Source: an uncultured Methanosarcinales archaeon
GTDB lineage: Archaea; Nanobdellota; Nanobdellia; Woesearchaeales; DSVV01
DNA length: 63,474 bases
Direction of reading: 5' to 3'
Assembly (NCBI GenBank): GCA_964390375.1
Contig: CAYMIF010000003.1
Coordinates: 1 to 63,474, forward strand
Below are positions 25,503 to 54,983 of the stretch, piece by piece; the stretch's first letter is position 1; every line of letters starts with the position of its first letter. Under the pieces are notes generated by a model. It ran no database searches. It saw nothing but the letters and a program-made list of their open reading frames with translations, and was not told where the DNA came from. The translations under genes and the position numbers were made by a program.

Positions 25503-25625
25503 GGCTATTATGAAATCCTATCCTACTTCACCGATGTTTCACATCGGTTCCGCCTGGCCACGAGAATATTTACTAATGTAAATATTCTCTCTCATGGCAC
25601 AGACGGCTAGGATTTCATAATAGCC
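25503..25625 (-). mobile_element. MITE-like element (structured element copy 1)
   Basis: Perfect 18-bp terminal inverted repeats GGCTATTATGAAATCCTA (25503-25520, 25608-25625). Perfect 9-bp flanking direct repeat TGTTTTATC (25494-25502, 25626-25634). Internal hairpins, no ORF. Confidence 0.8.
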
Positions 25626-25692
25626 TGTTTTATCATTAGATTTAAAAAGTCATCAACAGAAATAGTCTCAAAAGAAAAAACAGGAAAAAATT

Positions 25693-25962
25693 TTACTCTT
25701 CTTCGTCCTGGTTATAGTTTGGCACAGCAGACTTCGATATTATCATGATGTCTCCGATAGCCTTGACCAGCTGGTGAGGGACGATAACTCCTTTTGCCGA
25801 CCCCAGGATCCTGTTCAGGTATGAGTTTTTCGTAGATTTCACTCTCCACCCGAACACTTTGTTTGCTGTGAGTATTGACTCCTCGACATCCCCGAAGTAT
25901 TCACCTGAATCTGTGAATACTCTCATGTCATATGATTCAGTGATCTTTTTCATATTAAGCAT
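25693..25962 (-). CDS. PRC-barrel domain protein
   Basis: MLNMKKITESYDMRVFTDSGEYFGDVEE...IVPHQLVKAIGDIMII is the archaeal PRC-barrel pattern. Start moved from 26070 to the ATG at 25962. Confidence 0.8.
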   Translation of the reverse strand: MLNMKKITESYDMRVFTDSGEYFGDVEESILTANKVFGWRVKSTKNSYLNRILGSAKGVIVPHQLVKAIGDIMIISKSAVPNYNQDEEE

Positions 25963-26030
25963 AGTGAATCCCTCCGATATTGAAGATAAGTAAATTTTTA
26001 TAAGTATATAAATTTTTCCGTTGAAACAGC

Positions 26031-26780
26031 ATGTCACAGATAAAACTGGTAGGAACATCACACATAGCAAAGCAGTCAGTAAAGGAGATCAAGGCAGCGA
26101 TAGCCTCATTCAGGCCAGACATCGTCGCAGTAGAGCTGGATCAAAGAAGGCTCTACGGTCTGCTCACTCAGGAAAGGAAGCAGAAATACTCTTTGTCTAT
26201 GGCAAAGGACATCGGTCTGAGCGGATACATCTTTGCAGTCATAGGCTCTTTTCTCTCGCGAAAGCTAGGGAAATCTGTCGGTGTTATGCCTGGCGAGGAT
26301 ATGCTGACTGCAGTCAGGATAGCAAAAGAGCACAAGCTCGAAATTGCCCTGATTGACCAGGATATCGGCATAACCCTCAGGAACTTCTCAAAGGGCCTGA
26401 GCTGGAAAGAGAGGTTTCAGTTCATAAAAGACATTTTCAAGGGCATATTTTTCAAAAAAAGCCAGATGAAAAAATACGGCCTGAAGAAGATGGATCTGTC
26501 TAAAGTTCCGACAGGAAAGGTGATCCAGAAGCTTTTAGGCTCGATGAAGATAGACTATCCAAACATCTACAAGGCCCTGGTAGAGGACAGAAACCATTAC
26601 ATGGCAAAAAAGCTCAACTTTTTGCGCGGGAAATTCCCGGAGAAGAAGATTCTGGCGATTGTAGGTGCTGGTCACATAGATGGTATGCAAAATCTGATAG
26701 CACAAGGCCCAAAAGAAACCTTCAGCTATTCATACACTTTCGGCGGGACAACATATCCTCAGATAAACATCCTGGATTAG
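26031..26780 (+). CDS. TraB/GumN family protein
   Basis: IKLVGTSHI, VAVELD, LIDQDI, LVEDRNHYMA and AIVGAGHIDG are TraB-family motifs. Confidence 0.88.
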   Translation: MSQIKLVGTSHIAKQSVKEIKAAIASFRPDIVAVELDQRRLYGLLTQERKQKYSLSMAKDIGLSGYIFAVIGSFLSRKLGKSVGVMPGEDMLTAVRIAKEHKLEIALIDQDIGITLRNFSKGLSWKERFQFIKDIFKGIFFKKSQMKKYGLKKMDLSKVPTGKVIQKLLGSMKIDYPNIYKALVEDRNHYMAKKLNFLRGKFPEKKILAIVGAGHIDGMQNLIAQGPKETFSYSYTFGGTTYPQINILD

Positions 26781-26848
26781 CCAGAAATCTGCTGTTTCTC
26801 AAATTGAAAAATCAAAAGAAAGATAATAATAAAAAAACGAACATATTA

Positions 26849-28099
26849 TCAAAGCTTGTCAGCGATCAGTATCGCGCAGCTGTTTGATGATTTTACCTTT
26901 GAGTCCATGCCGATAAGAAACTTGATCTTGCTTTTCTCAGCCTGGTTCACAAGGGAAGAATCGATCACTCCGTCGAAGACTATTGCATATATCCCTGTGT
27001 TGAGTGACTGGATTGTGGTCTGCAGTTCGCTGTTAGGTACCTTTCCTAGGATATTCATCTTGTCGTCCAGGATATATGCGCCCCTTGTTCCGATTAGGTC
27101 TTCGAGCATGTCTTTTATGGTCTTCTTTTCCTGTCCAGTTAGTCTTGGAAGCTGCGAACTGCTGCTTCCTCCTCTTGAATTGCTGCCTCTCTTGTCATAG
27201 TTTTGCCTTTGGTGATGCTGTGGTTTGCCTGACCTTCTTTGGCTGTTTCCGCCTGAATCATCTCTTGTTTGAAGATCATGTTTTGCCTGTTCAGTCGAGA
27301 TCTTGCCTCTGAGAGCCTTGTGTATCTCCTTTTTGGTCAGCTCCTCGACCTCTTTTCCGTCAGGTGCTTTTGCCACAAAATCGATCTCTGCTCGGTCAGT
27401 CATCTCCTTGACAATAAGGTTGCCGCCGCGATCACCGTCCACAAAGACAGTCACGATCTTTCTCTTTGACAGTTCTACTACTGTCTCTGGAACATTCGTC
27501 CCGTTGATTGCAATAGCATTCTTAAACCCGTGCTTGAGCAGATTTATGACATCTGCTCTACCTTCGACTACGATGATATCGTCTGAATCCTCGACATTCG
27601 GTCCTGCAGGAAGCCTTTCATTTCCGTATTCCTGTATTTCCATGATACGCACAGAATAAGCTACTTCGTCTGCAAGTTCTTGTGAATCCGGCATCGATGT
27701 GTCCATGAGTTTTCTAAGAAGGTCCTTTGCCCGGTCTATGACAAAAGTCCTCTTGCTGACCCTGACATCCTCGATCTTCTCGACCCTGATCTTTGCGCTG
27801 CAAGGTCCGATTCTCTGGATGATCTCAAGCGCAGCAGCGACAATCACTGTCTCTGCCTTGTCCAGGCTTGAGGGGATCACGATCTCGCCGAGTGTCTTTC
27901 CTGATCTTGTCTCGACCTTGACCTCTATCCTTCCGATTCTTCCTGATCTTTGAAGCTCGCGAAGTTCCAGGTCAGCTCCGAGTAGTCCTTCTGTCTGTCC
28001 GAATATAGCACCTATCACATCTGGTCTGTCCACTACTCCGCCGATATTGATTGATGCATGGATGATGTATTTTGCTGATACTGGACTGATCTTTCCCAT
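26849..28099 (-). CDS. dnaG: Archaeal DnaG-type primase (exosome-associated)
   Basis: [34 protein letters not shown], Toprim [10 protein letters not shown] and FVDGDRGG. Confidence 0.95.
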
Positions 28100-28581
28100 T
28101 TTCTCATTCCTCCTGTAAGTCTTATGATGATAGAATCGAAAAAACTTTTCATTCCATCATTCTAGAAGAAGTCTGTTTATGGCTAGGTCCCTATATGTCT
28201 GCGTCCGAAAATTCGCAAAATTACCTTTTATTTGGTTGGATCTGATGAACATGAACAACACTTCTTCTGTTTTCTACTGTTTTTAAAGAATAAGCAATCC
28301 TTTCAGGCTTCCAAAAATAGGCAAATTCCACTGACAAAAAAGCTCATTTTTGTCTTATTTTTCCCATTTGGAAGCATATTGTTGATATCTGATGAAAATA
28401 AAGGTATTGCTTACCCTGTTTTTATTCTTTATGATTATAAAGGGTTTGTTGCCCGAAACACTAACTCCCAGGCTCATTGCTTGCATTTAGCGACTGCTCC
28501 ACTGAGTACTCTCGTGACGGGCTGCAGTACAAAAGGGTATCTCGATATCACAGCACAAAACCAAGGTTTCAGCTCAAACAA

Positions 28582-28811
28582 GGACCCATTTCTGTACTTT
28601 TGGCGTACTTATAAGTAACGCAGATATGTTTTTAAAGTTTCGTTTTTTGTCCAGAATTCTAACTATCATTCTTTTTTTTTTAAGTACGCGGAAACTCGTA
28701 GAGTTCAACGTACCTCGGTGCTCTGCGGACGAACCCGCAGGGACCCATTTCTGTACTTTTGGCGTACTTATAAGTAACGCAGATATGTTTTTAAAGTTTC
28801 GTTTTTTGTCC
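28582..28811. repeat. 71-bp direct repeat, two identical copies (28582-28652, 28741-28811)
   Basis: GGACCCATTTCTGTACTTTTGGCGTACTTATAAGTAACGCAGATATGTTTTTAAAGTTTCGTTTTTTGTCC occurs twice, separated by 88 nt. Confidence 0.9.
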
Positions 28812-28901
28812 GATTTCTGGATTTTTAAAAAAGGAGATTTAGCCCCTAAAATCAAAAAGCCCGCGAAAACTTTTTAAGCCACCAAGTCAAGAACACATAT
28901 C

Positions 28902-30578: not shown

Positions 30579-30665
30579 TCAAAACAGCATAAACAGCATA
30601 TATACTATTATATTTTTTATATTCAGAGAATATTTATCAGATAGATGCTATATAAGGTGATATAG

Positions 30666-31055
30666 ATGGAAGACATAAAGATGCATGAGGCCATAACCTG
30701 CAGAAAAGACACAAGTATTGTCGAGGCAGCGAGGATAATAAAGGACAAGAACATACGCCACATTTATGTCGTGGATGAGTCAGACATCCCGGTAGGCATA
30801 ATATCAGCGATGGATATAAACAACAAGGTTGTCGCAGAAGGAAAGGACCCAAACCAACTGGCAGCATCAGAGGTCATGAACTCGCCGGTTGATTCTGTTG
30901 ACATAAAAGCTCCGATAGAGCTTGCCATGAACATAATGATGAAGCGCAAGACCTACTCCTGCCTGGTCACGCAGGATAGGAAAATAAAGGGCGTTGTCGA
31001 TTACAAGACAGTGATGGAGCAGATAGTGAAACATTTGGAGGAGGAAGATGCTTGA
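30666..31055 (+). CDS. CBS domain protein
   Basis: Two CBS repeats (SIVEAARIIKDKNIRHIYVVD...GIISAMDI and IELAMNIM...LVTQDRKIKGVVDYKTV). Confidence 0.88.
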   Translation: MEDIKMHEAITCRKDTSIVEAARIIKDKNIRHIYVVDESDIPVGIISAMDINNKVVAEGKDPNQLAASEVMNSPVDSVDIKAPIELAMNIMMKRKTYSCLVTQDRKIKGVVDYKTVMEQIVKHLEEEDA

Positions 31056-31722: not shown

Positions 31723-31812
31723 CATTTTTTTCTTTCTCTTTTTTCTCTCATTCCCACTCTGTCTTCCCATATCTCACAACCTTTATTAACACCCTCAGCT
31801 TTATTGCCCAGA

Positions 31813-32517: not shown

Positions 32518-32591
32518 ATGAGCGTGCTTTATTTCTTAATGGCCCAGTGAAGAAAAAGATTTAAAAACAAGTCCTAAAATCTTCTCATAAA

Positions 32592-33110: not shown

Positions 33111-33146
33111 TTCAGTGATGCTTCCCTGTTTCTTTTTCTTCTTTTT

Positions 33147-33839: not shown

Positions 33840-33907
33840 GTAACTGTATTGTGTTGGTTGTTTATATAAACTTAGCGATTGCTACGAAGAAATATCCAGG
33901 AATTTTT

Positions 33908-41902: not shown

Positions 41903-41909
41903 TTATTTT

Positions 41910-43016
41910 TTATGTATTTGGATGCTGATTATTCTTTTCATTCTTGTTTTCTTTATTTATTTTTCTCACAATTCCTTTCTCCGCATCCACCTCGACCATG
42001 TCGCCGTCGCGCAGAACCTTCGTCGCAATCTTCGTCCCGATTACGCAGGGCTTGTTCATTTCCCTTGATATTATCGCAGCATGTGAAGTTATTCCTCCTT
42101 CATCTGTTACAAAAGCAGTAGCCTTGTTCAGTGCAAATGTAATATCTGGTTGGGTCATGCCGCATACCAGTATGTCCCCCTCTTTCAATTCCTTTGCAGT
42201 CTCAATCATTTTATCATAATCATCCTGCGGTATTATTTTAACTGGTCCCATGGCCTTTCCGGGATTTGCTGTCTTTCCACTTATGTTATCAGTTGCCGAT
42301 ATTTCTGTGCTGGCTATCCTTGATATCAGATCAGCCTCTTTTCCTGTTACAATGAATTTTTTAAGTCCTATGATACCCAAGACACAGCCTTTTTCGCGTT
42401 CCTCACCAAGCTTTATTGATCTTGCAATTGAAATTGTTTTATTAGCCAGCATCCTGATCTCGTCGTTTGTCAGCCTCTCCATCTGTTCAAGACTTAGCCC
42501 AAAGCCCTTAGCCGCAGCTTCTTTCATCGTCCTGGAATCCCGCTCTGCCTCAAGCCATGCCTTTTTAAGTTCAAGCCGAAGCTTGCCATATCTGTTCACA
42601 AGTCTCCTGATCTGTTCATTATCTATCATATCTTCGACAAGATCAAATATTTCAGGTCTCGAGGCGCGATAGTAAGACAGCAATTCTTCCAGTATTTCAG
42701 AATATGAAAAGATATCTCCTTTGAATTGCCTGATCCTCTGAATTGCCTTTCTTGCACCTTCTTCATGGTTTCTCATGTACTGTTCATTTAGTAATTTTCT
42801 CTTCCGGACAGACTTCAGCTGTGCAATCTCTTCTTCGCAGAAAAAAGCTTCTTCACTTCTGTTTTTATAGATATGTATCGTATCCTTGTTTTCATAACCC
42901 AGCCTTTTATTGAACTTTATATGGACATCCATTGCCCTGTCCAAAAACCATATAGTAAAATAGAACTCCCACAGCCTTCTCCATTTCCTCTTCTCTATCT
43001 CAGAAAGCAAATTCAT
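41910..43016 (-). CDS. PEP-utilizing enzyme mobile-domain protein
   Basis: C-terminal ILVCGMTQPD...FVTDEGGITSHAAIISREMNKPCVIGTKIAT...VEVDAEKGIV. The N-terminal region is unrecognised. Confidence 0.88.
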   Translation of the reverse strand: MNLLSEIEKRKWRRLWEFYFTIWFLDRAMDVHIKFNKRLGYENKDTIHIYKNRSEEAFFCEEEIAQLKSVRKRKLLNEQYMRNHEEGARKAIQRIRQFKGDIFSYSEILEELLSYYRASRPEIFDLVEDMIDNEQIRRLVNRYGKLRLELKKAWLEAERDSRTMKEAAAKGFGLSLEQMERLTNDEIRMLANKTISIARSIKLGEEREKGCVLGIIGLKKFIVTGKEADLISRIASTEISATDNISGKTANPGKAMGPVKIIPQDDYDKMIETAKELKEGDILVCGMTQPDITFALNKATAFVTDEGGITSHAAIISREMNKPCVIGTKIATKVLRDGDMVEVDAEKGIVRKINKENKNEKNNQHPNT

Positions 43017-44251
43017 CCGATCCGCCTCACAATCCCCTTCTCCGCATCCACTTCCACCATATCTCCATCCTTTAGGGTCTCAGTGATTCCTGCAACTCCG
43101 ATGATGCAGGGAACACCATACTCTCTGCTCATGATAGCAGCATGTGATGTGATTCCGCCTTTTTCTGTGATTATTGCCCCTGCTCTCTTTATTCCAGTGA
43201 AAAACTCTGGAGAAGTCTCATAGGCTACAAGTATATCTCCTTGTTCGACTTTTTCTATATCTTCAGTGTCTGAAACGACCTTGACGATTCCCTTGGCATG
43301 CCCATTCTTTGCAACCCTTCCCTTCATATCTGATCTTGATATCTCAACCTTAAGTTGCTCCAATATTCCATCCACCCTGCTGCCAGTGACTATTCTTCCG
43401 CCAGGCTCTATCCCATACTTGCTTCTGTCGCCGATTGTTATCTTATGCCCTTTCAGCCCAAATATCAGTTCATCGAAAGTTAAATCCAGATGATTCACTC
43501 CCAATCTCATGCCGGCTTTCTCAAGAATAGGTCTTATCTTATACTGAAGCATTCCTGAAAGTTCAGCAAAGAAGGTCCTGGAATACATCGCGATTGACGC
43601 AAGCTCAGCATGCCATTTAAGCTCTTCTGGAATATCAATCTCTTTTACCATAGACGGTTTGGTATCCTTAAGTTCCAGAAATTTTTCCATATCATATTCT
43701 TCCCCGATAAAATGATGGATTCCGCAGAACCTGAACCTGTCGATGTGCGCCTCAATCTCTTTTTTCGAAGCATTCTTCAGTTTCCTCGCCTCTTCAGCCT
43801 GCATCATAGTAAATGTCTTTCTGAATGGCCTGATTCCTGATATTATCTCATTGAGGTCATATCCTTTTTTTTTGCAGATCTCGAGCATCTGATTTTCAAG
43901 TGGAGAGTCAATAAATGCAAAAAAATTCCACAGACAGAGTACCTTCCTGAACCTGTCATTGAAGTCATTGATTGTCTTGACTCCAGCTCCCGCAGAAAAG
44001 CCTTCAGCTTCCCTCTTTATTTTTTCGATCCATTTCTTGAATGACTCGATTATTTCAAAATTGTTTTCAATGCACTTCAGAAATCTCGCGAATTCGTCCC
44101 TATCATCCTTCAGCCGGAAGAAATGCCCGTCAAGATAATACATGCTTCCGTCTATCTTGCATTCCTTGAAAGGAAATTCATAGTTCCATTTGTCCCAGAA
44201 GCAGGCTGAAAGCACAGGCTGTACCCATCTGCCCCAGTATTCCCATTTCAT
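43013..44251 (-). CDS. PEP-utilizing enzyme mobile-domain protein
   Basis: C-terminal ILVAYETSPE...ITEKGGITSHAAIMSREYGVPCIIG...VEVDAEKGIV. Confidence 0.88.
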   Translation of the reverse strand: MKWEYWGRWVQPVLSACFWDKWNYEFPFKECKIDGSMYYLDGHFFRLKDDRDEFARFLKCIENNFEIIESFKKWIEKIKREAEGFSAGAGVKTINDFNDRFRKVLCLWNFFAFIDSPLENQMLEICKKKGYDLNEIISGIRPFRKTFTMMQAEEARKLKNASKKEIEAHIDRFRFCGIHHFIGEEYDMEKFLELKDTKPSMVKEIDIPEELKWHAELASIAMYSRTFFAELSGMLQYKIRPILEKAGMRLGVNHLDLTFDELIFGLKGHKITIGDRSKYGIEPGGRIVTGSRVDGILEQLKVEISRSDMKGRVAKNGHAKGIVKVVSDTEDIEKVEQGDILVAYETSPEFFTGIKRAGAIITEKGGITSHAAIMSREYGVPCIIGVAGITETLKDGDMVEVDAEKGIVRRIG

Positions 44252-44307
44252 TTTTAAGATTTAGACAAGAATTGCTTCCATAAATAAAAAATTGCCGATT
44301 ATACTGG

Positions 44308-45750
44308 TCACTTCCCCATGCTCCTGGGATCGATCCAGCTCATAAACACCTTCTTGTAGTCCTCGTCGCTCTCGACCTTCTCTATGACATAGTCGAACAT
44401 ACCCATGTGTATCTTGCACCTGGAGGACTCAGCGACATTCGTGATAGTCGTTCCTTTCTCCATGTAGTTCATCACCGGACACACTCCGCAGAACGGCTTG
44501 TATGCACAGGTCGAGCAGTGCAGTGTGTCCAGTACTGAAGAGCTCATCAGGCTGCAGGCCCTGGGAGACGACACGACTTCCTTGTATTCATCATCGACTG
44601 TACCGAGCTTGAATATGTCCTCTTTGACCATCCTGCCTTCGTCGCAGCTGTATACACCGCCGTCCACATTGTATGCAAGCTGGCACAGCACAGCACCGCA
44701 TGGGTTCATCATCTCAGTATAGGCAGGATCAGTGTCAGTGAAAAGCTTCTGCATGATTATCTGCACGAATCTCTCGAATATGTATGTGCCCTCTTGGTTC
44801 TTCTTCACGATATAGTCAACGCTTTTTTTCCAGAAATCCAGGAATTCCTCTGGGGTATACCCCAGCTCTTCCCATTCCTCGTTCGCATACCCGAGATTGT
44901 TCATGAATCTGAGGTGTATTGCAGAGAATCCGAACTCAATGTACTTGTCGATTATCTCCTTGTAATATGGCAGTGAGTATCGCGTGATTGTAAGCAGTGT
45001 GTTTAGGTATCTCTTGTTCGGGTCAAGCACTTCTCCTGTCTGTATGCTGTTGATCTTTTTGATCCATTTCACCACATTCTCATAGCTCCCAGCGCCTGAC
45101 CGAAAAACCCTTACCTTGTCATGCACCTCTTTTATGCCCTCAAAAGAGCTGCACACTCCGATCTTGTGGTCGATGAAGAACTGCAGTTTTTCATCATCCA
45201 TGAGCGTGAGATTTGTGACAATAGAAAAATCTATGTTGCGTTCAGGGTCCTTGTTCGACTCCTTTGCATACTTCACGATATACTTTATTGCATCGAAGTT
45301 CAAAAGAGGCTCTCCTCCCTGGAATTCTATTATGATGTTCTTGGAAGGGCCTTTTAGTATGAAGTCGACTGTCTTCTTGGCAGTCTCCAGGCTCATGTGG
45401 TTAGAGCTGTCATTGTCCATCTTTGCGCTTGCCTGGCAGTATCTGCATTTCAGGTTGCACTGTTTTGTTACGACCACTATATGAAGCGATGGTCCTTGGT
45501 AGAGATAGAAATATCTTTTCCTGTAGTCCTCGATGAACTTGTCCATGTTCTCTTCTGCATTGATGATGCCTACGTTGGTCAGTTCTGCTTTGAGCTTGTC
45601 ATCTGTTTTCCCAGACATCATGTCTTCGTATTCTTTTTTGGAAAGTATGATCCACGAGCCATGTTCACATGATAAGAAGACCTTCTTTCCAGCTATCTCT
45701 CTTGCCCTGAAAAATCCCAGTTCATGGGATGCTTTTTTCTCCATTTTCAT
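44308..45750 (-). CDS. hxsB: His-Xaa-Ser system radical SAM maturase HxsB
   Basis: LHIVVVTKQCNLKCRYCQAS, IEFQGGEPLLNF, NPCGAVLCQLAYNVDGGVYSCDEGRM and SPASM-type CSTCAYKPFCGVCP. It is clustered with HxsD and the HxS precursor. Confidence 0.88.
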   Translation of the reverse strand: MKMEKKASHELGFFRAREIAGKKVFLSCEHGSWIILSKKEYEDMMSGKTDDKLKAELTNVGIINAEENMDKFIEDYRKRYFYLYQGPSLHIVVVTKQCNLKCRYCQASAKMDNDSSNHMSLETAKKTVDFILKGPSKNIIIEFQGGEPLLNFDAIKYIVKYAKESNKDPERNIDFSIVTNLTLMDDEKLQFFIDHKIGVCSSFEGIKEVHDKVRVFRSGAGSYENVVKWIKKINSIQTGEVLDPNKRYLNTLLTITRYSLPYYKEIIDKYIEFGFSAIHLRFMNNLGYANEEWEELGYTPEEFLDFWKKSVDYIVKKNQEGTYIFERFVQIIMQKLFTDTDPAYTEMMNPCGAVLCQLAYNVDGGVYSCDEGRMVKEDIFKLGTVDDEYKEVVSSPRACSLMSSSVLDTLHCSTCAYKPFCGVCPVMNYMEKGTTITNVAESSRCKIHMGMFDYVIEKVESDEDYKKVFMSWIDPRSMGK

Positions 45751-45977
45751 ACCATAGATTCGTTCTTCATTACGCCCAGAACATAGTTCTTGAATTCCAG
45801 GCCGATGCTCTCAGCATCCTCTTCTGATGATATTGTCACTAGAAATGCATCATTTTCGTGAAAATCAAGCTTGGCGACCTCTGAGAAATCATTGATAGCC
45901 TGTTCGATCGCCTCTTTTAAATAGAGCTTCTTGTTAAACATAATCTTCGCTTTCTTTTCCATCTTTTGGTCTTGCAT
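45747..45977 (-). CDS. HxsD-like small protein
   Basis: FNKKLYLKEAIEQAINDF...IGLEFKNYVL is an HxsD-like pattern. It sits between hxsD and hxsB with overlapping ends. The true start may be 45962 or 45941. Confidence 0.7.
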   Translation of the reverse strand: MQDQKMEKKAKIMFNKKLYLKEAIEQAINDFSEVAKLDFHENDAFLVTISSEEDAESIGLEFKNYVLGVMKNESMV

Positions 45978-46575
45978 CAGCCTTCACTTTTTCTCTCTTT
46001 TCCTTCTTTGCTTTATCTTCTGGCTTTTTTTCAGGATTATCAGATTCTTTTTTCATTTGTTCCGAATCCTTCTTTTCCTGCTTATCGCTTCCATCGGTCT
46101 CTTTATTTTTCTTGTCCTTTCCGTACTTTTCCTCCCAGGGTATCGCGATTCCTTCCGGGTCCTCAAGGAAGTCATCATCACTGATATCATCGAAGAACTC
46201 GTCATCATCGCTGTCAGCGATTTCGCTTTCATCCTCTCGGGTGATATCCGAAAGAGCATCCGGTCCCATGTTGGTGATAAGCGCTCTTTGCAGCATCATG
46301 TTCCTGGCATCCTTGTTGTCATCCAGCACGTTCTTGTAATGTGCATAGAAAAGCAGTTGGTTCATGAACTCTTTTCCCATGCCTTTCGCATCATCCTGGC
46401 CTTTCGGTCTGATAGACACTAAAACCTTACTATCCGGATCACCATCAAGCGAGATGAAAGCTTTATCCAGAAATATATATGATGCAGTATAGATCACATC
46501 AAGAGGATACAAAGAAGTCTTGACAGGTATGTCGCAGCAGTTCTCCTCTTTATTATACTTCATGTTCTGGTCCAT
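45934..46575 (-). CDS. hxsD: His-Xaa-Ser system protein HxsD with acidic/charged C-terminal extension
   Basis: SLYPLDVIYTASYIFLDKAFISLDGD...EFMNQLLFYA...ARNMMLQRAL. GGAGG lies upstream of the ATG at 46575. Confidence 0.8.
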   Translation of the reverse strand: MDQNMKYNKEENCCDIPVKTSLYPLDVIYTASYIFLDKAFISLDGDPDSKVLVSIRPKGQDDAKGMGKEFMNQLLFYAHYKNVLDDNKDARNMMLQRALITNMGPDALSDITREDESEIADSDDDEFFDDISDDDFLEDPEGIAIPWEEKYGKDKKNKETDGSDKQEKKDSEQMKKESDNPEKKPEDKAKKEKREKVKADARPKDGKESEDYV

Positions 46576-46652
46576 AGAAACAACCTCCCTATGCATTGGC
46601 AAAATAAATTTTACTATATAAGTTTTATCTTTTGAATTATTATCAGAAAAGA

Positions 46653-47804
46653 TCAGTTCCGAAATAACCGAAGGACATCATTTAGCCCGAGCCTGATCCA
46701 GTAGATCTTCACCATGTTAAGGAAATTGCCTCTGTTTAAGAGAAGAAGTATGATGCCGATGAACATGAATGGCGCGAACGGGATTGTATGTGATATGCGC
46801 ACGCTGTGCTGGCTGAACCTCCCGCTCGAATGCAGCTTTTGGAGCTCTTTTATGTTCTCCTTGTTCAGCCCTTCAGGAAAATACTCTATCGCCTGGCTTT
46901 GGGTAGTGCTGCGAAACAGCGAGTTTAGGCTGTAGAATATGTTCTTCTCTGTATGATATCTGACCTTCTCCTTGCCATCTTTCTTGTCCTTTTCCTTGAT
47001 TATCCTCTCTGCCAGGACCATCCCGGGTTTCAGCCTCTCGATCTGCACCTCTTCAGTCAGGTACTCATAGCTGAGGTTCAGGACAAAATACCGAAGTACG
47101 ATGTATGAGGCGACAAGTTTCAGTGACATCAGGATGAATTGGCCTGAGCTGATTGTCTCATAATCAAAAACAGCCCGGATGATTGCCAGTATCAGAAGTG
47201 CGATCTTCATCTTCATGCTCTTGTTCGAGAGTGTCTCTATGAATAGGAAGAAGAACACGAATCTTCCGAAGAATCCCGGGTCGATGTTGAATGGTCCTAA
47301 AATCAGGGTCAATATCCAGTCGCCGACAAAGAAATAGAGAAATATCATCCCGATCAATCTCAGCTTGAACTTTTTGAAGACATCGATCTTCTGCTGGGTT
47401 GTCGTCCTGGTCAGGCACAGGTAAAGGTAATAGATGAACATGGGTATGAATGTATTGATGAGGATTATTATCGCCTGGAAATATGGAAACTCCGAGAATT
47501 GGTATGCAGACATTGGAACAAGCATCGAAAACGCAAAGAAAAGTTTCGCATCCCCAGCACTCCAAAGACCGGCAAGCCATATGAATATCCCGAATGCAAG
47601 AGCGATCCCGGAGCTAAGCAGCAGCTTTGCGATATCCAGGTAGCCGATCACCTGAAATGCCACTAGAATGATATTGACCAAAATGCTGTACCCAAGTCCA
47701 AACAGGATCATGTTGTTCCTGATCTTCCCGTACCTGATATCTGTATAGCTTGTGACTGCCCCGAGGACCAATATCCCGGGAAGGAAAGCATATATAGGGT
47801 CCAT
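46653..47804 (-). CDS. A24 family (prepilin/TadV-like) aspartic peptidase, extended multi-TM form
   Basis: SYTDIRYGKIRN (first Asp), WSAGDAKLF (second Asp) and a C-terminal IPFAPFMFIG. Start moved to the ATG at 47804. Confidence 0.88.
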   Translation of the reverse strand: MDPIYAFLPGILVLGAVTSYTDIRYGKIRNNMILFGLGYSILVNIILVAFQVIGYLDIAKLLLSSGIALAFGIFIWLAGLWSAGDAKLFFAFSMLVPMSAYQFSEFPYFQAIIILINTFIPMFIYYLYLCLTRTTTQQKIDVFKKFKLRLIGMIFLYFFVGDWILTLILGPFNIDPGFFGRFVFFFLFIETLSNKSMKMKIALLILAIIRAVFDYETISSGQFILMSLKLVASYIVLRYFVLNLSYEYLTEEVQIERLKPGMVLAERIIKEKDKKDGKEKVRYHTEKNIFYSLNSLFRSTTQSQAIEYFPEGLNKENIKELQKLHSSGRFSQHSVRISHTIPFAPFMFIGIILLLLNRGNFLNMVKIYWIRLGLNDVLRLFRN

Positions 47805-47913
47805 GCCGAATCTGCAAAAGAATATGGAATATAAATCTTTGCATAACTTTGGATTTAACATATAATCGCAACATTTATAAGTGTTCTTCAGGCAGCTGGA
47901 TCTGTGTCAGCCA

Positions 47914-48909
47914 ATGTCAAAGATAACGTTTTATGAGATAAAACCATGGGAAAAGAAATATCTGCAGAAAAACCTAAAAGAACATACATTGAAATTTTAT
48001 GAGCAGCCTCTTGGCAGCAGCAACATCGAAAAAGACTCTGAAATTATATCAACATTCATATATTCAAAACTAAATCCAGATTTTCTGAAAAAATTTCCAA
48101 AGCTTAAGTTGGTCACGACCAGATCAACCGGTTATGATCATATCAACACAGTCCTTTGCAAAAAAAAAGGCATTGCTGTATGCAATGTTCCCTATTATGG
48201 CGAGAATACTGTCGCAGAGCACACTTTCGGGCTGATACTGACTCTCTCCCGGAACATACACAAGTCCTACGTGCGCACCCAAAGGAACGATTTTTCCATA
48301 GAAGGCCTGACCGGATCTGATCTTAAGGATAAGACAATAGGTATAATCGGGGGAGGCCACATAGGGCTGCATGTGGCGCGGATGGCTCGGGCTTTCGGTA
48401 TGCATGTCAGGGTTTTCGATATAAACAGGGACAATTTCCTGGCAGAGGTAATAAACTTCAGATATACTCAGCTTGATGAATTATTGAAAATATCAGACAT
48501 AATCACCTTGCATGTCCCTTACAATAAGCACACCCATCATCTGATAAACAAGGATAACATAGGAACGATAAAAAAAGGCGCTATATTGATAAATACCTCA
48601 CGTGGAGGCGTGGTCGACACAGATGCATTGCATAATGCGCTTCGAACAAAGAAGTTAGGCGGTGCAGGGCTTGACGTAATAGAAGGTGAGGAGTATATAA
48701 AAGAGGAGCATCAGCTGCTGAAAAGCGAGAGAAATCCCCAGAAATGGAGGGCCATTGTCAGGGACCATAAGATATTCGATATGGACAATGTGGTTTTCAC
48801 GCCCCACAATGCTTTTAACAGCAAGGAGGCGTTGATGAGGATATTGGACGTAACTATTGAAAACATACAGGCATTTCTTCAGAAAAAAGACAAAAACCAG
48901 GTCAACTGA
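47914..48909 (+). CDS. D-isomer-specific 2-hydroxyacid dehydrogenase (D-lactate dehydrogenase-like)
   Basis: TRSTGYDHIN, NVPYYGENTVAEH, GIIGGGHIG, LINTSRGGVVD, GLDVIEGE and TPHNAF. Start moved to 47914. Confidence 0.92.
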   Translation: MSKITFYEIKPWEKKYLQKNLKEHTLKFYEQPLGSSNIEKDSEIISTFIYSKLNPDFLKKFPKLKLVTTRSTGYDHINTVLCKKKGIAVCNVPYYGENTVAEHTFGLILTLSRNIHKSYVRTQRNDFSIEGLTGSDLKDKTIGIIGGGHIGLHVARMARAFGMHVRVFDINRDNFLAEVINFRYTQLDELLKISDIITLHVPYNKHTHHLINKDNIGTIKKGAILINTSRGGVVDTDALHNALRTKKLGGAGLDVIEGEEYIKEEHQLLKSERNPQKWRAIVRDHKIFDMDNVVFTPHNAFNSKEALMRILDVTIENIQAFLQKKDKNQVN

Positions 48910-48993
48910 CTTTGACTATTTTCTCTTATATCCCAAAAGCAAACATTAAAAACTGATTAGTTGTTCTGCAGCACCAGGCGAGGTGTAGATTCT

Positions 48994-49881
48994 ATGAACA
49001 GGTTAGACTTGAAGGTCGGCTTTACCTGTAACAACAACTGCAGGTTCTGCGCTCAGGCCCACAAGAAGAGATTCAAAGACAGGAGGACCCAAGACCTTCT
49101 AAAAGAGCTCAGGGAGGCTAAAAAGACCTGTGATGGGGTGGTGTTCACAGGCGGCGAGCCGACTATCAGGCCGAACATCTTGGATATGGTCAGGGAAGCA
49201 AAAGACCTGGGATATCAGACCATCCAGATACAGTCCAACGGCCGCATGTTCTCTTCGATGGAATTCTGCAGGAAGATGATTGCTGCCGGAGCAACAGAAT
49301 TCTCGCCGGCACTGCACGGCCATCGGCCAGAGCTTCATGATTTTTTGACAAGATCCAAGGGAAGTTTCAGCCAGACCCTAAAAGGCATAATGAACCTCAG
49401 GAAGCTTGATCAGTTCATCCTGACAAACACAGTAGTTGCAAAGCCCAACTATCGTCATCTGCCTGCATTGGCCAGGCTCTTTGTCAGGCTTGGTGTGGAT
49501 CAGTTCCAGCTGGCTTTTGTGCATGCAGTAGGAAATGCCCAGAAATACTATGACTCTATTGTACCTGTAAAGACCCTGGCCATGCCCTACATAAAAAAAG
49601 CCATGCAGATAGGTATAGACAACAGCATCTCGGTCATGGCAGAGGCCATACCGTTCTGCATGATGACTGGGTACGAAAGATACTGCTCAGAGAATTTCAT
49701 ACCAGATACAGAGATAGCTGATCTGGATGTAAGAATAGACAATTACACGAAAGTTCGAAGGGACCAGGGTAAGACAAAATTCTCTTTTTGCTCTGATTGC
49801 AGATATGACAGTATCTGCGAAGGCCCCTGGAAGGAATACCCGGAAAAGAAAGGTGATAAGGAATTCCATCCGATAAGATGA
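48994..49881 (+). CDS. Radical SAM protein (HxsC-like)
   Basis: CNNNCRFC, FTGGEPTIR, IQSNGRMF and C-terminal CSDCRYDSICEG. GAGGTG lies upstream of the ATG at 48994. Confidence 0.9.
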   Translation: MNRLDLKVGFTCNNNCRFCAQAHKKRFKDRRTQDLLKELREAKKTCDGVVFTGGEPTIRPNILDMVREAKDLGYQTIQIQSNGRMFSSMEFCRKMIAAGATEFSPALHGHRPELHDFLTRSKGSFSQTLKGIMNLRKLDQFILTNTVVAKPNYRHLPALARLFVRLGVDQFQLAFVHAVGNAQKYYDSIVPVKTLAMPYIKKAMQIGIDNSISVMAEAIPFCMMTGYERYCSENFIPDTEIADLDVRIDNYTKVRRDQGKTKFSFCSDCRYDSICEGPWKEYPEKKGDKEFHPIR

Positions 49882-52145
49882 AAAAGGCTCAGGATGCAGT
49901 ATTTGTAAAAAAGTTCTGGATAAGCCTGACCGGCCTATGCAACAACAACTGCATCTTCTGTCTGGACGGCGAGCGAAAAGACAGGTTCCACAAGGATCCA
50001 GAAAGCATAAAAAAGGAGATATTAAAGGCAAAAGAGGACGGCGCGACAAGACTGGTCCTATCTGGTGGAGAGCCTACGATATTTCCCCAGATAATAGACA
50101 TCGTAAGATACGGGCGATCCATAGGATTCGACCGTATACAGACCATATCCAACGGCCGCATGTATGCATACAAGAGATTCACAAAAGACATGGTAGATGC
50201 AGGTCTGAATGAGGTGACTTTCTCGATTCATGGCCCGAACTCAAAGGTACATGATGCCATGACGCGCGTTCCAGGCTCCTTTCGCGAGTCCATTCTTGGG
50301 CTAAAAAATATCAGTTCAGTCCCTGGGATGATATATAACACCGACACTGTTGTCACAAGACTAAACTACATGCATCTTTTTTCGACAGTCCGCGTTCTTC
50401 ATGAGAGGTTCGATGTCTGGGAGATGAACCTGATGAACATAGTTCCTCAGGGAAATTCCATGAGATACAGGGACAAGGTGCTCTATGATTATGATGAGGT
50501 CATGCCAGAGGTAAAAAGAGTGATTGATTATTGCAGGAAAAGAGGGATTTACATCTGGCTTTCCCGTTTTCCTGAAAGAGAGCTTGAAGGCTATGAGGAT
50601 TTCATACAGGATGCCCACAAGATGATAGACGATGTCAGAGGCACATATGAGATATTCGACAGCAACGATGAGCCGCCCTGCGAGGCAGTCCGGTGCAGAT
50701 ACTGCGGAGTCGCGCCCATATGCAGCAGGATATTCCAGGTGAAAAAAAGGTTCAAGGAGCAGGGCATAACAAAGAATGAAAAAACACAAAAAGAGCTCAT
50801 AACAGATAGATCCATACTCCCTGATCTTGAACAAGAGATTGAAAGATTAGCAGGAAAAGGAAGCAGCATCAGGATAAGATACCCTAGTCCAGTTGAAAGG
50901 CTTGAGGATTGCCAAAGTTTGATGCCAAGGTTCTCAGACCTGATCCCAAGGCTTGCACAAGCACTGAAAAACTCAGATAAGATAAAGAAAATCGAGTTCA
51001 TCGACTTCCCGTTCTGCATGATCGAGGATGCGATGACCAAAGCAGGGATTCCGCATTACTCTACCCAGAACCGCTTCATCCCAGTAGTCAAGCCTTCTTA
51101 TCAGAAAAATGGAAAGCTTGACTATATCAGGGTCGCCCAAGACCTCTGTCTTGCGGTCAGGACGAATCCCAAGGTCTGTGATTCATGCATGATGCAGGGT
51201 ATCTGCCAGGGAATATTCAAGAAATACATGCGCCTATACAGCACATCTGAGCTCAGGCCCAGGTTCTGCCGTGAGCTGAGGATAGGCCTCAGATGCAATC
51301 AGGACTGTATTTTCTGCAACACCGACTCTGGTGCCATGAACATGATATCTGATGATAAAAAGATAAAGGATCAGATCACAGAATGGTCAAAACAGGGAAT
51401 AGAGCTTCTGATAATTAGCGGAGGCGAGCCTTCAATGATGAAGGGCCTGCCTTCATACATAAGGATGGCAAAAGAGCAGGGTGCAAAGCACATCGAGCTT
51501 CAGACCAACGCAGTGGTGATAGATAAGGAATATGCAAAACAGCTATCTGAGGCAGGACTAAACATGGCCTTTGTTTCATTCCACGCAATTGACGAGAATA
51601 CCAATGCATTGATAACAAGGGTCAGGGGAACGTTTGAAAAGACTGTCGCAGGTATAAAGAATCTTCTGGATAGCAAGGTCGATGTGACCCTCAACATCGT
51701 AGTCAACACTTATAACTACAAGCAGTTGAAGGGTATTGTAAGATTCATCCAGGAAAATTTCCCTGACATCAAGGCCATTACCCTCTCCTTTGTCGCACCC
51801 CTTTGTCAAGCAAGAAAAAACAAAGAGTGCATACCCTCTATATCAGAGACCCTGCCTTTCATAAAACAAGCGATAGATTATTGCAGGGCCAATGCGATGG
51901 ATATTCGGATACCAGCAAGATGCGGGATTCCGCCCTGCTTCCTTCCCGGATACGAGCATCTCTTCGACACACTCAAGGAATCAGGAAGATGGGATGATTT
52001 CGATGATAAGACAAAGCTTGATGTCTGCGCGGGCTGCAGCAACGATAGTCGCTGTTCAGGCTTGTGGGATTTCTACATAGCCATTCATGGCTCAGATGAA
52101 TTCAGCTCCTATGCAGGCAAATATGTCAAAGGTGAGGTCAGATGA
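49878..52145 (+). CDS. Double radical SAM domain protein (HxsC-like x2)
   Basis: Two motif sets, CNNNCIFC/SGGEPT and CNQDCIFC/SGGEPS. Auxiliary Cys clusters are CRYCGVAPIC, CDSCMMQGIC and CAGCSNDSRC. Confidence 0.9.
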   Translation: MKKAQDAVFVKKFWISLTGLCNNNCIFCLDGERKDRFHKDPESIKKEILKAKEDGATRLVLSGGEPTIFPQIIDIVRYGRSIGFDRIQTISNGRMYAYKRFTKDMVDAGLNEVTFSIHGPNSKVHDAMTRVPGSFRESILGLKNISSVPGMIYNTDTVVTRLNYMHLFSTVRVLHERFDVWEMNLMNIVPQGNSMRYRDKVLYDYDEVMPEVKRVIDYCRKRGIYIWLSRFPERELEGYEDFIQDAHKMIDDVRGTYEIFDSNDEPPCEAVRCRYCGVAPICSRIFQVKKRFKEQGITKNEKTQKELITDRSILPDLEQEIERLAGKGSSIRIRYPSPVERLEDCQSLMPRFSDLIPRLAQALKNSDKIKKIEFIDFPFCMIEDAMTKAGIPHYSTQNRFIPVVKPSYQKNGKLDYIRVAQDLCLAVRTNPKVCDSCMMQGICQGIFKKYMRLYSTSELRPRFCRELRIGLRCNQDCIFCNTDSGAMNMISDDKKIKDQITEWSKQGIELLIISGGEPSMMKGLPSYIRMAKEQGAKHIELQTNAVVIDKEYAKQLSEAGLNMAFVSFHAIDENTNALITRVRGTFEKTVAGIKNLLDSKVDVTLNIVVNTYNYKQLKGIVRFIQENFPDIKAITLSFVAPLCQARKNKECIPSISETLPFIKQAIDYCRANAMDIRIPARCGIPPCFLPGYEHLFDTLKESGRWDDFDDKTKLDVCAGCSNDSRCSGLWDFYIAIHGSDEFSSYAGKYVKGEVR

Positions 52146-53107
52146 CCAAAAGAAAGCCGGCCTTCATGCAGGTGACAAGAAAGTGCAACAACAGATGCGT
52201 ATTCTGCTCAAACCCTCAGTTCGAGAAGGACTACACATTCGAAGAGGCAAGAGATAGAATCAAGGAGCTGCATTCTCAGGGTGTGAATGAGATTAGCTTT
52301 ACCGGAGGCGAGCCCACGCTTGTTGAGTTCCTCCCTGACCTGATAGGATTTGCAGTGGACTTCGGCATATCTACCAGGATGATAACAAACGGTGCCAATC
52401 TTTCAGATAAAGCTCTTGTCAGGAAGCTCAGGTCCGCTGGACTGCAGGGCATAAACGTATCGGTTCACACCCACAAGGAAGAAGACTCAATAAAGCTTGG
52501 CGCAGCAGAAGGAAATTTTAAGAAGACACTGGCCGGTATAAGAAATGCAGTGGATGCAGGGTTCCATGTTGTGATAAATTCGACCATCAATTCAGTCAAC
52601 TGCAGCTATCTTTCTGACTTCATAGCTTTCTACATGAACACCTATCCGTCGGTCCGTCATTTTGTATTCAACAACCTCGATCCCGGAACAGCTGACGGAA
52701 ACATCCAGTCGCGCGCAGGCGAGAATCCCTGGATCGTCGCAAGATTGGTCGATATGGAGCTTGAGCTCTACAAGACAGCCATGCTTCTTAAGAAGAATGG
52801 CAGGACCTTCAGGATAGAGAGAGTGCCGTTGTGTTATATGCAGGGGTTTGAGGAATTCTCTACAGAGACCCGAAAGATTGTCAAGGAGGAGCAGTACATA
52901 TGCTCATTTGTTGAAAAAGACAAAGATAATGAGGTCAGGATTGTCGAGCCAGGTAGATGGAAGACTGTGGCCCCCTGCTGCGAGGTCTGCGCCCTGAATT
53001 CTATATGTGCAGCAGTCCAGAAGGAATATGCAGACCTCCACGGTCTGGATGAGCTCTACCCTGTATTCACAGACCCAAGAAAGATCAGAGAAAAGATTCT
53101 TTCATAG
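52142..53107 (+). CDS. Radical SAM protein (HxsC-like)
   Basis: CNNRCVFC, FTGGEPTL, ITNG, VPLCYM and C-terminal CEVCALNSIC. Confidence 0.9.
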   Translation: MTKRKPAFMQVTRKCNNRCVFCSNPQFEKDYTFEEARDRIKELHSQGVNEISFTGGEPTLVEFLPDLIGFAVDFGISTRMITNGANLSDKALVRKLRSAGLQGINVSVHTHKEEDSIKLGAAEGNFKKTLAGIRNAVDAGFHVVINSTINSVNCSYLSDFIAFYMNTYPSVRHFVFNNLDPGTADGNIQSRAGENPWIVARLVDMELELYKTAMLLKKNGRTFRIERVPLCYMQGFEEFSTETRKIVKEEQYICSFVEKDKDNEVRIVEPGRWKTVAPCCEVCALNSICAAVQKEYADLHGLDELYPVFTDPRKIREKILS

Positions 53108-53109
53108 CC

Positions 53110-53249
53110 TCTTCATCCAAAAAATGTGTCTGTGCCAAGGGAGGAAATATTTATGAAATACTGAGAACAGAATGTTCTCCTGATTGAGAATTTTTAATTC
53201 TCAATAAATATTTTCGTGGCCAGGCGGAGTAGTATTTTTTGGATGAAGA
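53110..53249 (+). ncRNA. Structured element copy 2 (RNA or ssDNA)
   Basis: Outer stem TCTTCATCCAAAAAAT/ATTTTTTGGATGAAGA, core GTCTGTGCCA...GTGGCCAGGCGGAGTA, and internal hairpins GAGAACA-GAA-TGTTCTC and ATTGAGAATT-TTT-AATTCTCAAT. Confidence 0.65.
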
Positions 53250-53269
53250 CCTTCTCAATTCTGATTATA

Positions 53270-54145
53270 TCACGAAAATGGCAAAAGCTCAGAATCCCCA
53301 AAAAGCTTCAGGTATTCCTCATCTATCCCAAAGCATTCTTCAGCTCTTCTGCACTCTTTGCATCTATCAGGTTTTATCCTAGGTCCATAGTCTGTGGAAT
53401 AGAACTCAGACTCGAATGGCTCTGACATGAATCTGATATTGTTTGAGAAAAGGTCATCGCAAAGATCTGATCTGCCTGATATCAGGCAAAGGGAAAAGCC
53501 TTCGACACCAGCCTTGATTCCTCTCTTCTCAGCCTCTTCACAGGCACGAACAGATGCCTCAGCACACCTGCTTATCTTCTCGACCAAAAGGTTTTTGTTC
53601 GATAAAGCAGCTCCATTGATGACAAGGCTTGCAAACTTTATCCTGTCCACGCCCATATCATCTGCAAGGCCGACAATCTCGTTCAGCTCTTCGAAGTTCA
53701 TCTTGTTGACGACAACGCTCAGGATGACGTCGACTCCTGCAGATCTCAGGTTCCTGATCCCCTGGATAGTCTGTTCAAATGCCTGTGCCTGGCTCAGCCT
53801 GTCATGGACCTCTTTTTTATGGCTGTGAAGTGAGACAAAAACCTCAGCCAGCCCGATATCGCAGCATTTCACAAGAAAATCTTTCGATGAGAACATCCTT
53901 GCGTTTGACACCATACCCGCAGAAAATCCATGATTTCTGATATGTCTGAGGATCCTGAATATATCTTTTCTGATTGTAGGTTCACCCCCTGAAAGGATAA
54001 TCTCTTTTGCGCCTGTCTTTTTTGCAGCTTCGATCTTTTTGAACGCTCCTTCAGAAGAAAGCCGCGAATCAGAGAAACGCTTCGCATGGCAGAACAGGCA
54101 GTTGTTGTTGCATTCATAGCTTAGTTTGATTATAGCCTTGCCCAT
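53270..54145 (-). CDS. Radical SAM protein (HxsC-like)
   Basis: MGKAIIKLSYECNNNCLFC, LSGGEPTIR, VSNARMF and C-terminal CKECRRAEEC. The track ORF (to 54295) is over-extended into the precursor gene. Confidence 0.88.
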   Translation of the reverse strand: MGKAIIKLSYECNNNCLFCHAKRFSDSRLSSEGAFKKIEAAKKTGAKEIILSGGEPTIRKDIFRILRHIRNHGFSAGMVSNARMFSSKDFLVKCCDIGLAEVFVSLHSHKKEVHDRLSQAQAFEQTIQGIRNLRSAGVDVILSVVVNKMNFEELNEIVGLADDMGVDRIKFASLVINGAALSNKNLLVEKISRCAEASVRACEEAEKRGIKAGVEGFSLCLISGRSDLCDDLFSNNIRFMSEPFESEFYSTDYGPRIKPDRCKECRRAEECFGIDEEYLKLFGDSELLPFS

Positions 54146-54191
54146 ATGAAAACAAGAAAAATAGCATGATTTAATTAATTTGCTGATGTCT

Positions 54192-54500
54192 TCACCACTG
54201 CCCATGCGATCCGTGCGACCCGTGTGATCCATGCGATCCGTGCGACCCATGGCTGGAATGCGACCCGTGGCTTCCATGATGTGAATGCGAGCCATTCAGG
54301 TTTCCCGGAGGAAATCCAGAGAATATAGATACATTGTTTGAATGCAGATATGCAGCCTCCACATCCTTGTTCATGATTAGCGATGACATAGCTGCACCTG
54401 AAAGTATTGCGCCGATTGTAAGAAGTGATTGTTTTGATATCTTTCCATCATCTCCGAGAAGGAATGCGTTTATCCTCTTTTTTAGTCTTGGGCACACCAT
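54192..54500 (-). CDS. hxsA: His-Xaa-Ser repeat precursor peptide (HxsA-type)
   Basis: The C-terminus is SHSH-HGS-HGS-HSS-HGS-HGS-HGS-HGS-HGS-HGQW (8 consecutive HxS). The N-terminus is a basic leader followed by a hydrophobic helix. Confidence 0.92.
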   Translation of the reverse strand: MVCPRLKKRINAFLLGDDGKISKQSLLTIGAILSGAAMSSLIMNKDVEAAYLHSNNVSIFSGFPPGNLNGSHSHHGSHGSHSSHGSHGSHGSHGSHGSHGQW

Positions 54501-54653
54501 ATCACTCCATCAGAGGATTTATATATATAAATATTTTTTGTTTGGTAGGCGCAGTCCCAAAAGTCATGGATTAGTATATGAATTTTTTTCCAATTTACTT
54601 TTTAATTATATGATTGGAAAAAATTCGACCAGAAAAACTCCATTTTTCTGAGC

Positions 54654-54757
54654 ACTGTTAAATCCGTCTGCGTCACGAGAGAGAATATTTATGAAGTAAA
54701 TATTCTCGAGACCAGACGAAGTTTTCACGAAGTGAAAACGTAGTAGGATTTAATAGT
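54654..54757 (+). ncRNA. Structured element copy 3 (RNA or ssDNA)
   Basis: Outer stem ACTGTTAAATCC/GGATTTAATAGT, core GTCTGCGTCACG...CGAGACCAGACGAA, hairpin GTTTTCAC-GAA-GTGAAAAC, then GTAGTA. Confidence 0.65.
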
Positions 54758-54796
54758 ATACAGAAAAGGTACTTTCGGGACAGCGCCGATTGGTAG

Positions 54797-54983
54797 GGCT
54801 AATATGAAATCCTAGCCGTCTGTGCCATGAGAATATATATCTTTAGGCAATATTCTCAGTTGGGCTAAGCCAACCATTTATGGTTGGCGCACGCCCTACA
54901 TGGCTGGTCTGCGGGCCAGAGCGTAGGGCCAGGCGAAACCGATGTGAAACATCGGTGAAGTAGGATAGGAGTTCATATTAGCC
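54797..54983 (+). mobile_element. Structured element copy 4 (MITE-like, same ends as copy 1)
   Basis: TIRs GGCTAATATGAAATCCTA / TAGGAGTTCATATTAGCC (17/18 complementary). It has the same core and ACCGATGTGAAACATCGGTGAAGTAGGA as copy 1, plus extra internal hairpins. Flanks GATTGGTAG/TTTTGTTAG match only 6/9. Confidence 0.7.

Follow-up and report, generated by a model that had tools for sequence, protein, structure and literature searches.

A probable MITE-like element family with a conserved three-way junction in DPANN archaea

This work concerns a short non-coding element that occurs four times in the window, i.e., in the whole stretch of 63,474 nucleotides (nt) analysed here (contig CAYMIF010000003.1). 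[quoted passage not shown] A new MITE-type family is the best reading. Every MITE feature that could be tested was found (a length of 100-190 bp, absence of coding sequence, terminal inverted repeats, a locus-specific target-site duplication, and presence/absence polymorphism), except an identified parent insertion sequence (IS). A previous sequence-only reading had described a structured non-coding element in four copies. The element is not a non-coding RNA family confined to the window: many copies are spread across Nanoarchaeota/Woesearchaeota, with inverted repeats, 8-9 bp duplications and an empty orthologous site. The flanking direct repeats, and hence the mobility, had been overlooked.

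The outer stem of the fold (P1) consists of two terminal inverted repeats of 12-23 bp, most of which start with GGnnnTG, and insertion duplicates 8-9 bp of AT-rich target. The interior (helices P2 and P3 and the junction) is kept paired by compensatory changes on one strand only. The element would be mobilised in trans, presumably by a DDE-type transposase with IS1/IS6-like ends, and its fold may act single-stranded, as a transcript or as single-stranded DNA (ssDNA) exposed in transposition or replication. The fold would serve the propagation of the element itself, e.g., as a structure read by the mobilising machinery, and not the regulation of neighbouring genes.

Ends, target-site duplications and an empty site

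Homologous loci were collected by pattern scans. A degenerate pattern run over a genome collection gave 8 true matches, 6 of them in metagenome-assembled genomes (MAGs) of Woesearchaeota or Nanoarchaeia; four more were chance matches in GC-rich bacterial genes, approximately the number expected. An improved pattern returned 74 metagenome loci, of which approximately 67 are true, and the Woesearchaeota/Nanoarchaeia MAGs and metagenomes together provided approximately 75 homologous loci. Related populations contributed many copies that are nearly identical to one another. Viral contigs scanned with two patterns gave 0 matches. The other two of the 8 true matches lie on contigs of MAGs labelled Methanosarcinales (L006 and L012); either the range of hosts is wider, or DPANN contigs were binned wrongly.

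As for the window itself, the closest named relatives of its Topo VI A are Nanoarchaeota/Woesearchaeota proteins (74-78% identity). Genes for DnaG, a RIO kinase and an archaeal prepilin peptidase are also present, together with a tRNA gene that contains an intron. Judged by these relatives and this gene content, the host is a DPANN archaeon, as had been proposed before. Exact-protein look-ups of window genes returned only short contigs from the window's own sample.

Exact direct repeats of at least 8 bp were found in the correct geometry at 22 of the 67 copies. In the control, the left flank of one copy was combined with the right flank of another; this gave 0.29 for 67 copies, and no more than 2 in any of 200 permutations. 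The repeats lie just outside P1 and vary by locus (GATAAAACA at window copy 1; ATTTAATAC, GATTAAAAG, GAATTGACA, CTACAAACC and TTAAAAAC elsewhere). Where both ends are clean they are 8 or 9 bp long, 9 bp being commoner, and the target 9-mers are AT-rich and unrelated among loci. Since these locus-specific repeats flank P1, we regard P1 as a pair of terminal inverted repeats. Its tips are mostly GGnnnTG (GGCTCTG, GGTTGTG, GGCTGTG, GGAACTG), the ends reading GG.../...CC; the P1 families GGCTATT and GGTAGGG fall outside this scheme. P1 families start with GGCTCTGT, GGCTAWTATGAAA and GGTAGGGTCAGG, and the window alone contains three or more P1 families. We also considered the duplicated 9-mer as a TATA box of the element and dropped this idea, the duplications being AT-rich but off the TATA consensus.

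Insertion could be followed at one locus. In L039 and L043 the element sits between an AMMECR1 gene and a CBS gene that converge. A protein search located orthologous loci that lack the element, L090 (89% protein identity) and L089 (82%), where the two stop codons are approximately 1 nt apart, and the alignment of filled and empty sites shows a clean 140-nt insertion. This is direct proof of insertion at the AMMECR1/CBS locus. Among the element-bearing loci collected no empty site was present and each orthologous pair was filled, because these loci had been found through the element. Same-orientation tandem pairs occurred three times, and in two of these pairs the insertion of one copy lies 0-3 nt away from the other's end.

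Fold, covariation and strand bias

The four copies noticed by the sequence-only reading were confirmed on their strands, with the following positions and parts:

25503..25625, minus strand: copy 1, whole element, 123 nt
25625-25605, minus strand: copy 1, 5' arm of P1
25604-25552, minus strand: copy 1, P2
25551-25549, minus strand: copy 1, joining segment J2/3, GGA
25548-25530, minus strand: copy 1, P3
25529-25524, minus strand: copy 1, joining segment J3/1, GAAGUA
25523-25503, minus strand: copy 1, 3' arm of P1
25626..25634, minus strand: copy 1, 5' target-site duplication GATAAAACA (sequence reading and direct-repeat detection)
25494..25502, minus strand: copy 1, 3' target-site duplication GATAAAACA (the same exact repeat)
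53110..53249, plus strand: copy 2, the most diverged of the four
54654..54757, plus strand: copy 3, 104 nt
54797..54983, plus strand: copy 4, 187 nt

The half-motifs of the element occur together at only four places in the window, which are these copies. The common architecture consists of the outer stem P1, P2 (GUCUG-Y-GYC...GRC-CAGRC), J2/3 (GRA), the hairpin P3 (8 bp with a GAA loop) and J3/1 (GWAGUA), and the junction reads C-GUCUG-Y-GYCA ... GRC-CAGRC-GRA ... GNAGUA. Copy 2 is without P3 and carries an extra two-hairpin insert at the P2 apex. Copy 3 has P1 and P3 sequences of its own and a P2 with GUC/GAC, and its P1 pairing is extendable to approximately 54645-54766. Copy 4 is a close paralog of copy 1, with the same P1 family, an identical P3 and a P2 insert of approximately 70 nt. 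Extra hairpins are indeed tolerated at a fixed place, the P2 apex (copies 2 and 4 and locus L046).

Folding agreed with this architecture and its conserved core, both of which had been described before: the minimum free energy (MFE) of the window copies ranged from -40 to -87 kcal/mol with z-scores from -7.4 to -12.5, and 0 of 200 dinucleotide shuffles were as stable. Copy 1 reached an MFE of -68.4 and z of -12.45, and the z-scores of copies 2, 3 and 4 were -7.84, -7.38 and -8.35. The compensatory changes reported between the copies are present in the sequence (GGCTATTATG/CATAATAGCC versus GGCTAATATG/CATATTAGCC, GCC/GGC versus GTC/GAC, and ACCGATGT/ACATCGGT versus GTTTTCAC/GTGAAAAC), and GAA triloops, like GNA triloops generally, are frequent among the loops, as had been noticed.

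Covariation was assessed on an alignment of 40 homologs, with the window copies excluded. The P1-P2-P3 fold left 93.2% of cells paired, and only 29-42% when the partners were slid by 1-3 columns. Double-sided changes were present in 35 of 45 pairs, and in 24 of the 33 internal pairs of P2 and P3 (RNAalifold). The covariation score was 0.588 versus at most 0.138 in the slid controls, and none of five covariation measures was reached by any of 500 shuffles. The covariation of the stems, first suggested by four copies, thus holds in independent homologs.

The wobble pairs point to one strand. Within P2 and P3, G.U outnumbered A.C by 103 to 5, and one G.U occurs in 38 of the 40 sequences. The bias was weak in P1 (23 versus 11). 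The earlier statement that all wobbles favour the same strand therefore stands for P2 and P3 and only weakly for P1. Over the 40 homologs P1 is 86% paired, is 12-23 bp long and shows a recurrent purine-purine mismatch near its third pair. The observation that the outer stems differ between copies yet stay paired is right as far as the pairing goes, but this covariation is largely the appearance of transposon inverted repeats, and it is only P2 and P3 that require a structural explanation.

A covariance model was built from metagenome homologs only, without the window copies. It recovered copy 1 with 53.9 bits (E 8.6e-17), copy 3 with 49.9 bits (E 2.4e-15), copy 4 with 36.5 bits (E 1.5e-10) and copy 2 with 21.8 bits (E 3e-5); the sole other match in the window was weak (15.3 bits) and lay on the reverse strand of copy 3. 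Over 0.5 Mb of loci, sense matches scored 47-133 bits and reverse-strand matches at most 25 bits. As GUCUG, CCAGRCGRA and AGUAG were fixed in the search patterns, the invariance of the alignment at these positions is partly by construction; in five copies found solely by the model the core is kept and AGUA varies (AGAA, AGGA, AAUA). On the covariation, the wobble bias, and the sense versus reverse scores of the model, we conclude from sequence analysis that the fold is real, selected and strand-specific. The earlier suggestion that it could act as RNA or as ssDNA agrees with this selection on one strand, and both fit the strand bias and the GNA/GNRA loops.

No named family was recognised in the sequence-only reading, and Rfam 15 yielded none for the window copies, whether gathering thresholds or E values of up to 10 were applied. 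Six typical homologs were likewise without a match, the best chance scores being far below threshold. The families covered included hammerhead, twister, pistol, hatchet, HDV, 5S, SRP, and C/D and H/ACA small RNAs. Resemblances to hammerhead, hairpin, K-turn, H/ACA, 5S and SRP RNAs were judged by eye and rejected on core motifs or junction-strand order; none of the Rfam models scored.

The complementarity could also be a passive by-product. In this case the element would be a palindromic MITE whose P2 and P3 arms are matched by hairpin-templated repair or by regeneration from a few masters, and the fold would have no function. MITE transcripts generally form stable stem-loops (PMC10969869), the near-identical duplicates mean that the counted cells are not independent events, and the orientation relative to genes is random. 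However, there are many different P2/P3 stem sequences, with the internal pairs altered on both sides as counted above, asymmetric features have been retained (the bulged Y, a 5' bulge of 4-6 nt, the G.U pair of 38/40 sequences, and a GUU/GUU mismatch motif), and the G.U excess lies on one strand. Because of the asymmetric features and the G.U excess, we prefer one-strand selection to symmetric homogenisation of the arms, and consider a functionless fold unlikely.

Genomic context and possible roles of the fold

The copies are mostly intergenic (63/69). Between tandem genes, 20 are co-oriented with both flanking genes and 16 opposite, i.e., the orientation is unbiased; 20 copies (n=65) lie between divergent genes and 5 between convergent ones. 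The distances from the 3' end of the model to the start codon of the outward-reading gene cluster at 49-66 nt, on either side. BRE/TATA boxes (TTTAAATA, TTTATATA) stand in the flanks approximately 10 nt past the duplication and approximately 30 nt before the ATG, and stop codons are found 8-13 nt away on the other side of the element. Since stop codons and promoters lie so close, the element is therefore confined to the dispensable bases of very short intergenic regions.

Such a position could suit a cis-acting or small RNA serving the host (riboswitch, leader, terminator/insulator, or small RNA gene) and spread incidentally by transposition. A conserved junction with covarying helices is known from riboswitches and ribozymes, copies stand directly after stop codons and just upstream of promoters, and tandem pairs occur. 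On the other hand, the 140 neighbouring proteins belong to diverse housekeeping genes, no family being enriched or accounting for more than 4 of them, and this diversity together with the unbiased orientation excludes a gene-specific riboswitch. The location of 20 copies between divergent promoters means that many are crossed by no flanking sense transcript, archaeal termination needs oligo-T and not hairpins, and there is no Rfam match. We hold a host-serving RNA to be very unlikely.

An autonomous partner was sought in the same material, and neither a partner nor a transposase was detected, whether in the window or in the 0.5 Mb of flanking sequence. The 25 commonest families of the neighbouring proteins included no transposase. 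Matches of 10-13-mers of the inverted repeats elsewhere in the loci were at chance level only, as in the 13-mer scan, where one 15-mer (L006) lies in coding sequence; the loci contain no pair of GG...CC inverted repeats that is spaced by 0.5-4 kb and accompanied by a duplication.

In another explanation, the fold is an ssDNA structure used by HUH/Y1-type transposition, like the ends of IS200/IS605, PATEs and REP/REPIN. The structure is strand-specific, it often has C-GNA-G triloops, whose stability in DNA is very high, the orientation is independent of transcription, and the folded strand tolerates T5-T6 runs. These runs stand in the P3 loops of one subfamily; in archaea they should terminate transcription, which mildly favours a DNA-level role, at least in that subfamily. 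Nevertheless, the element has inverted repeats and locus-specific duplications, neither of which is present in IS200/IS605 or REP, and no HUH gene was found among the neighbouring proteins. We therefore regard this explanation as quite unlikely.

The interior has other unusual features. The 5' segment of P2 is tandemly duplicated, which gives two registers, one with the 4-6 nt 5' bulge and the other with 3' AUGGC free; both are well paired and within approximately 2 kcal/mol, and the variable GYC position covaries with both partners. P3 could be extended by a GA-flanked 3x3 loop made up of the linkers G-R-A and G-N-A-G-U-A. It may be asked whether the fold is a catalytic or protein-recruiting RNA on which mobility depends, as with the bridge RNAs of IS110 or the omega RNAs of TnpB. 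Conservation looks higher in the core than at the ends, the unpaired junction nucleotides (GRA / GNAGUA) are near-invariant, with a possible GA-flanked 3x3 loop or loop-E-like motif, and the two alternative P2 registers both covary. However, there is no match to a known ribozyme or guide RNA family, the element offers no conserved loop that could pair with targets and the targets are unrelated AT-rich 9-mers, no associated protein gene occurs among the neighbours, and transcription of the element is only assumed. An RNA-dependent element of this kind is thus highly improbable.

Several points weigh against the MITE-like reading itself. Besides the missing partner, the transposase family is inferred solely from end motifs and duplication length, and DDE elements with target duplications are not known to pass through an ssDNA step. 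Unlike in ordinary MITEs, conservation looks higher in the junction core than in the inverted repeats, with an ascertainment bias at the pattern positions; this could mean that something other than the repeats is recognised. A transcript as the acting form is an assumption only, with 20/65 copies between divergent promoters and, in one subfamily, oligo-T runs on the folded (sense) strand; random orientation and these runs argue against the need for a full-length transcript.

A more far-reaching variant of the MITE-like reading would be that the mobilising machinery recognises the three-way junction and not the inverted repeats. This would amount to structure-dependent transposition (through folded RNA or ssDNA) with 8-9 bp duplications, or to a MITE with its own catalytic or scaffold RNA. 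We know of neither for DDE-type elements and offer the variant as a speculative and rather doubtful one. If it is true, DPANN archaea would have revealed a new mechanism.

The family raises the question of why a parasitic mini-transposon whose inverted repeats drift keeps a bistable helix and a strand-specific three-way junction with near-invariant nucleotides. An answer might expose an RNA- or ssDNA-dependent step of transposition, or a domesticated RNA. The family also supplies a searchable model (covariance model, defined ends, duplications and an empty site), probably accounts for assembly breaks in such genomes, and is a warning to motif hunters that covarying 'outer stems' may be plain transposon ends.

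Setting in the window and comparison with known systems

In copy 1, the exact 9-bp direct repeat GATAAAACA abuts both inverted-repeat ends. This copy is flanked by a PRC-barrel gene and by an open reading frame (ORF) of 180 amino acids (aa), helix-turn-helix (HTH)-like, which precedes a giant gene. The 180-aa ORF (24594-25136, minus strand) contains two repeats of the HTH-like segment and has a TTTAAATA box upstream at approximately 25186; between it and copy 1 (25137-25502) lies an AT-rich spacer of approximately 300 nt with short tandem repeats. The giant ORF (window 1-24609, minus strand, more than 8,200 codons) starts with MARTKQKK at approximately 24609 and runs off the left end. It has a membrane anchor near the N-terminus, Laminin_G_3 and NosD/beta-helix matches, and a 15-nt tandem repeat at 23427-23566; its predicted product is probably a giant surface protein.

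Copy 2 starts 3 nt after the stop codon of a radical SAM gene (52142-53107), and no recognisable target-site duplication is left in its flanks. In an independent assembly (Logan) of the window's sample, contig L087 (4373-4476) terminates within copy 2, which suggests that the repeat family breaks short-read assemblies. Five radical SAM genes cluster in the region 41910-54295, and the product of one of them (755 aa) has two radical SAM stretches. They are accompanied by a gene for a 2-hydroxyacid dehydrogenase and by two genes with a PEP-utilising domain, and the cluster may encode a cofactor or peptide-modification pathway. A 9-nt tandem repeat (54201-54248) lies within the gene 53270-54295.

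Copies 3 and 4 stand in tandem in the same orientation, copy 4 being 39 nt downstream, and precede an APH-type kinase gene. The flanks of copy 4, GATTGGTAG (54788-54796) and TTTTGTTAG (54984-54992), match by eye at 6/9 positions and are a possible decayed duplication. Its P2 insert (54850-54925, approximately 70 nt) is GC-rich, forms hairpins of its own and includes a core-like piece, GTCTGCGG..GCCAGAGCG; it is possibly a nested or partly duplicated copy. Elsewhere in the window, a tRNA gene (63294-63393, plus strand) has a 29-nt intron in the anticodon loop and scores 50.4 bits with Rfam; ARAGORN misses it. Outside the window, locus L081 carries at 3-104 another long hairpin, approximately 260 nt from the element, with weak matches to miRNA-precursor models only. 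It may be a different palindromic MITE.

Among three-way-junction RNAs, the hammerhead, the purine riboswitch and 5S loop E presumably have a similar purine-rich junction, and AGUA/GRA recalls loop E. We take the hammerhead to differ in its CUGANGA/GAAA core, which is missing here, and in the opposite order of the junction strands, while in 5S rRNA AGUA presumably lies 5' of the hairpin and here 3' of it.

The ends of IS200/IS605, PATEs, REP/REPIN and integron attC sites are likewise strand-specific imperfect hairpins with bulges, and have non-coding intergenic derivatives. IS200/IS605 and REP elements are without terminal inverted repeats and make no target duplication; the present element has both, and in this it lacks the defining features of the IS200/IS605, PATE and REP group.

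As regards DDE-type elements, GGnnnTG ends are typical of IS6/IS26, which make 8-bp duplications, and the motif is common to IS1 (PMC6807381). Most clean ends here resemble those of IS6/IS26 and IS1 in having GG with T6 and G7 and an 8(-9) bp duplication, and the adjacent same-orientation copies are a weak hint of IS26 behaviour. Unlike in these systems, no transposase gene was found in the window or the flanks of the loci, the GGCTATT and GGTAGGG P1 families misfit, and 9 bp is commoner than 8.

Prokaryotic MITEs are small and non-coding, with inverted repeats, short decaying duplications, AT-rich intergenic targets, many copies and a hairpin fold, and the review that lists these traits includes no DPANN family (PMC10969869). 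An archaeal census found the highest MITE densities in Altiarchaeum and a Woesearchaea genome, and counted DPANN MITEs in bulk only (PMC11602168). DPANN genomes are tiny and dense, yet in that census their MITE density is the highest among archaea, and to our knowledge none of those elements is characterised. The present element has the general traits in common with the Correia/NEMIS elements of Neisseria, ERIC of enterobacteria, QMITE of Coxiella and the SM elements of Sulfolobus. It differs from them in that no parental IS was found, in its DPANN hosts, in inverted repeats that vary more than the core, and in its conserved three-way junction, covarying helices and one-strand wobble bias.

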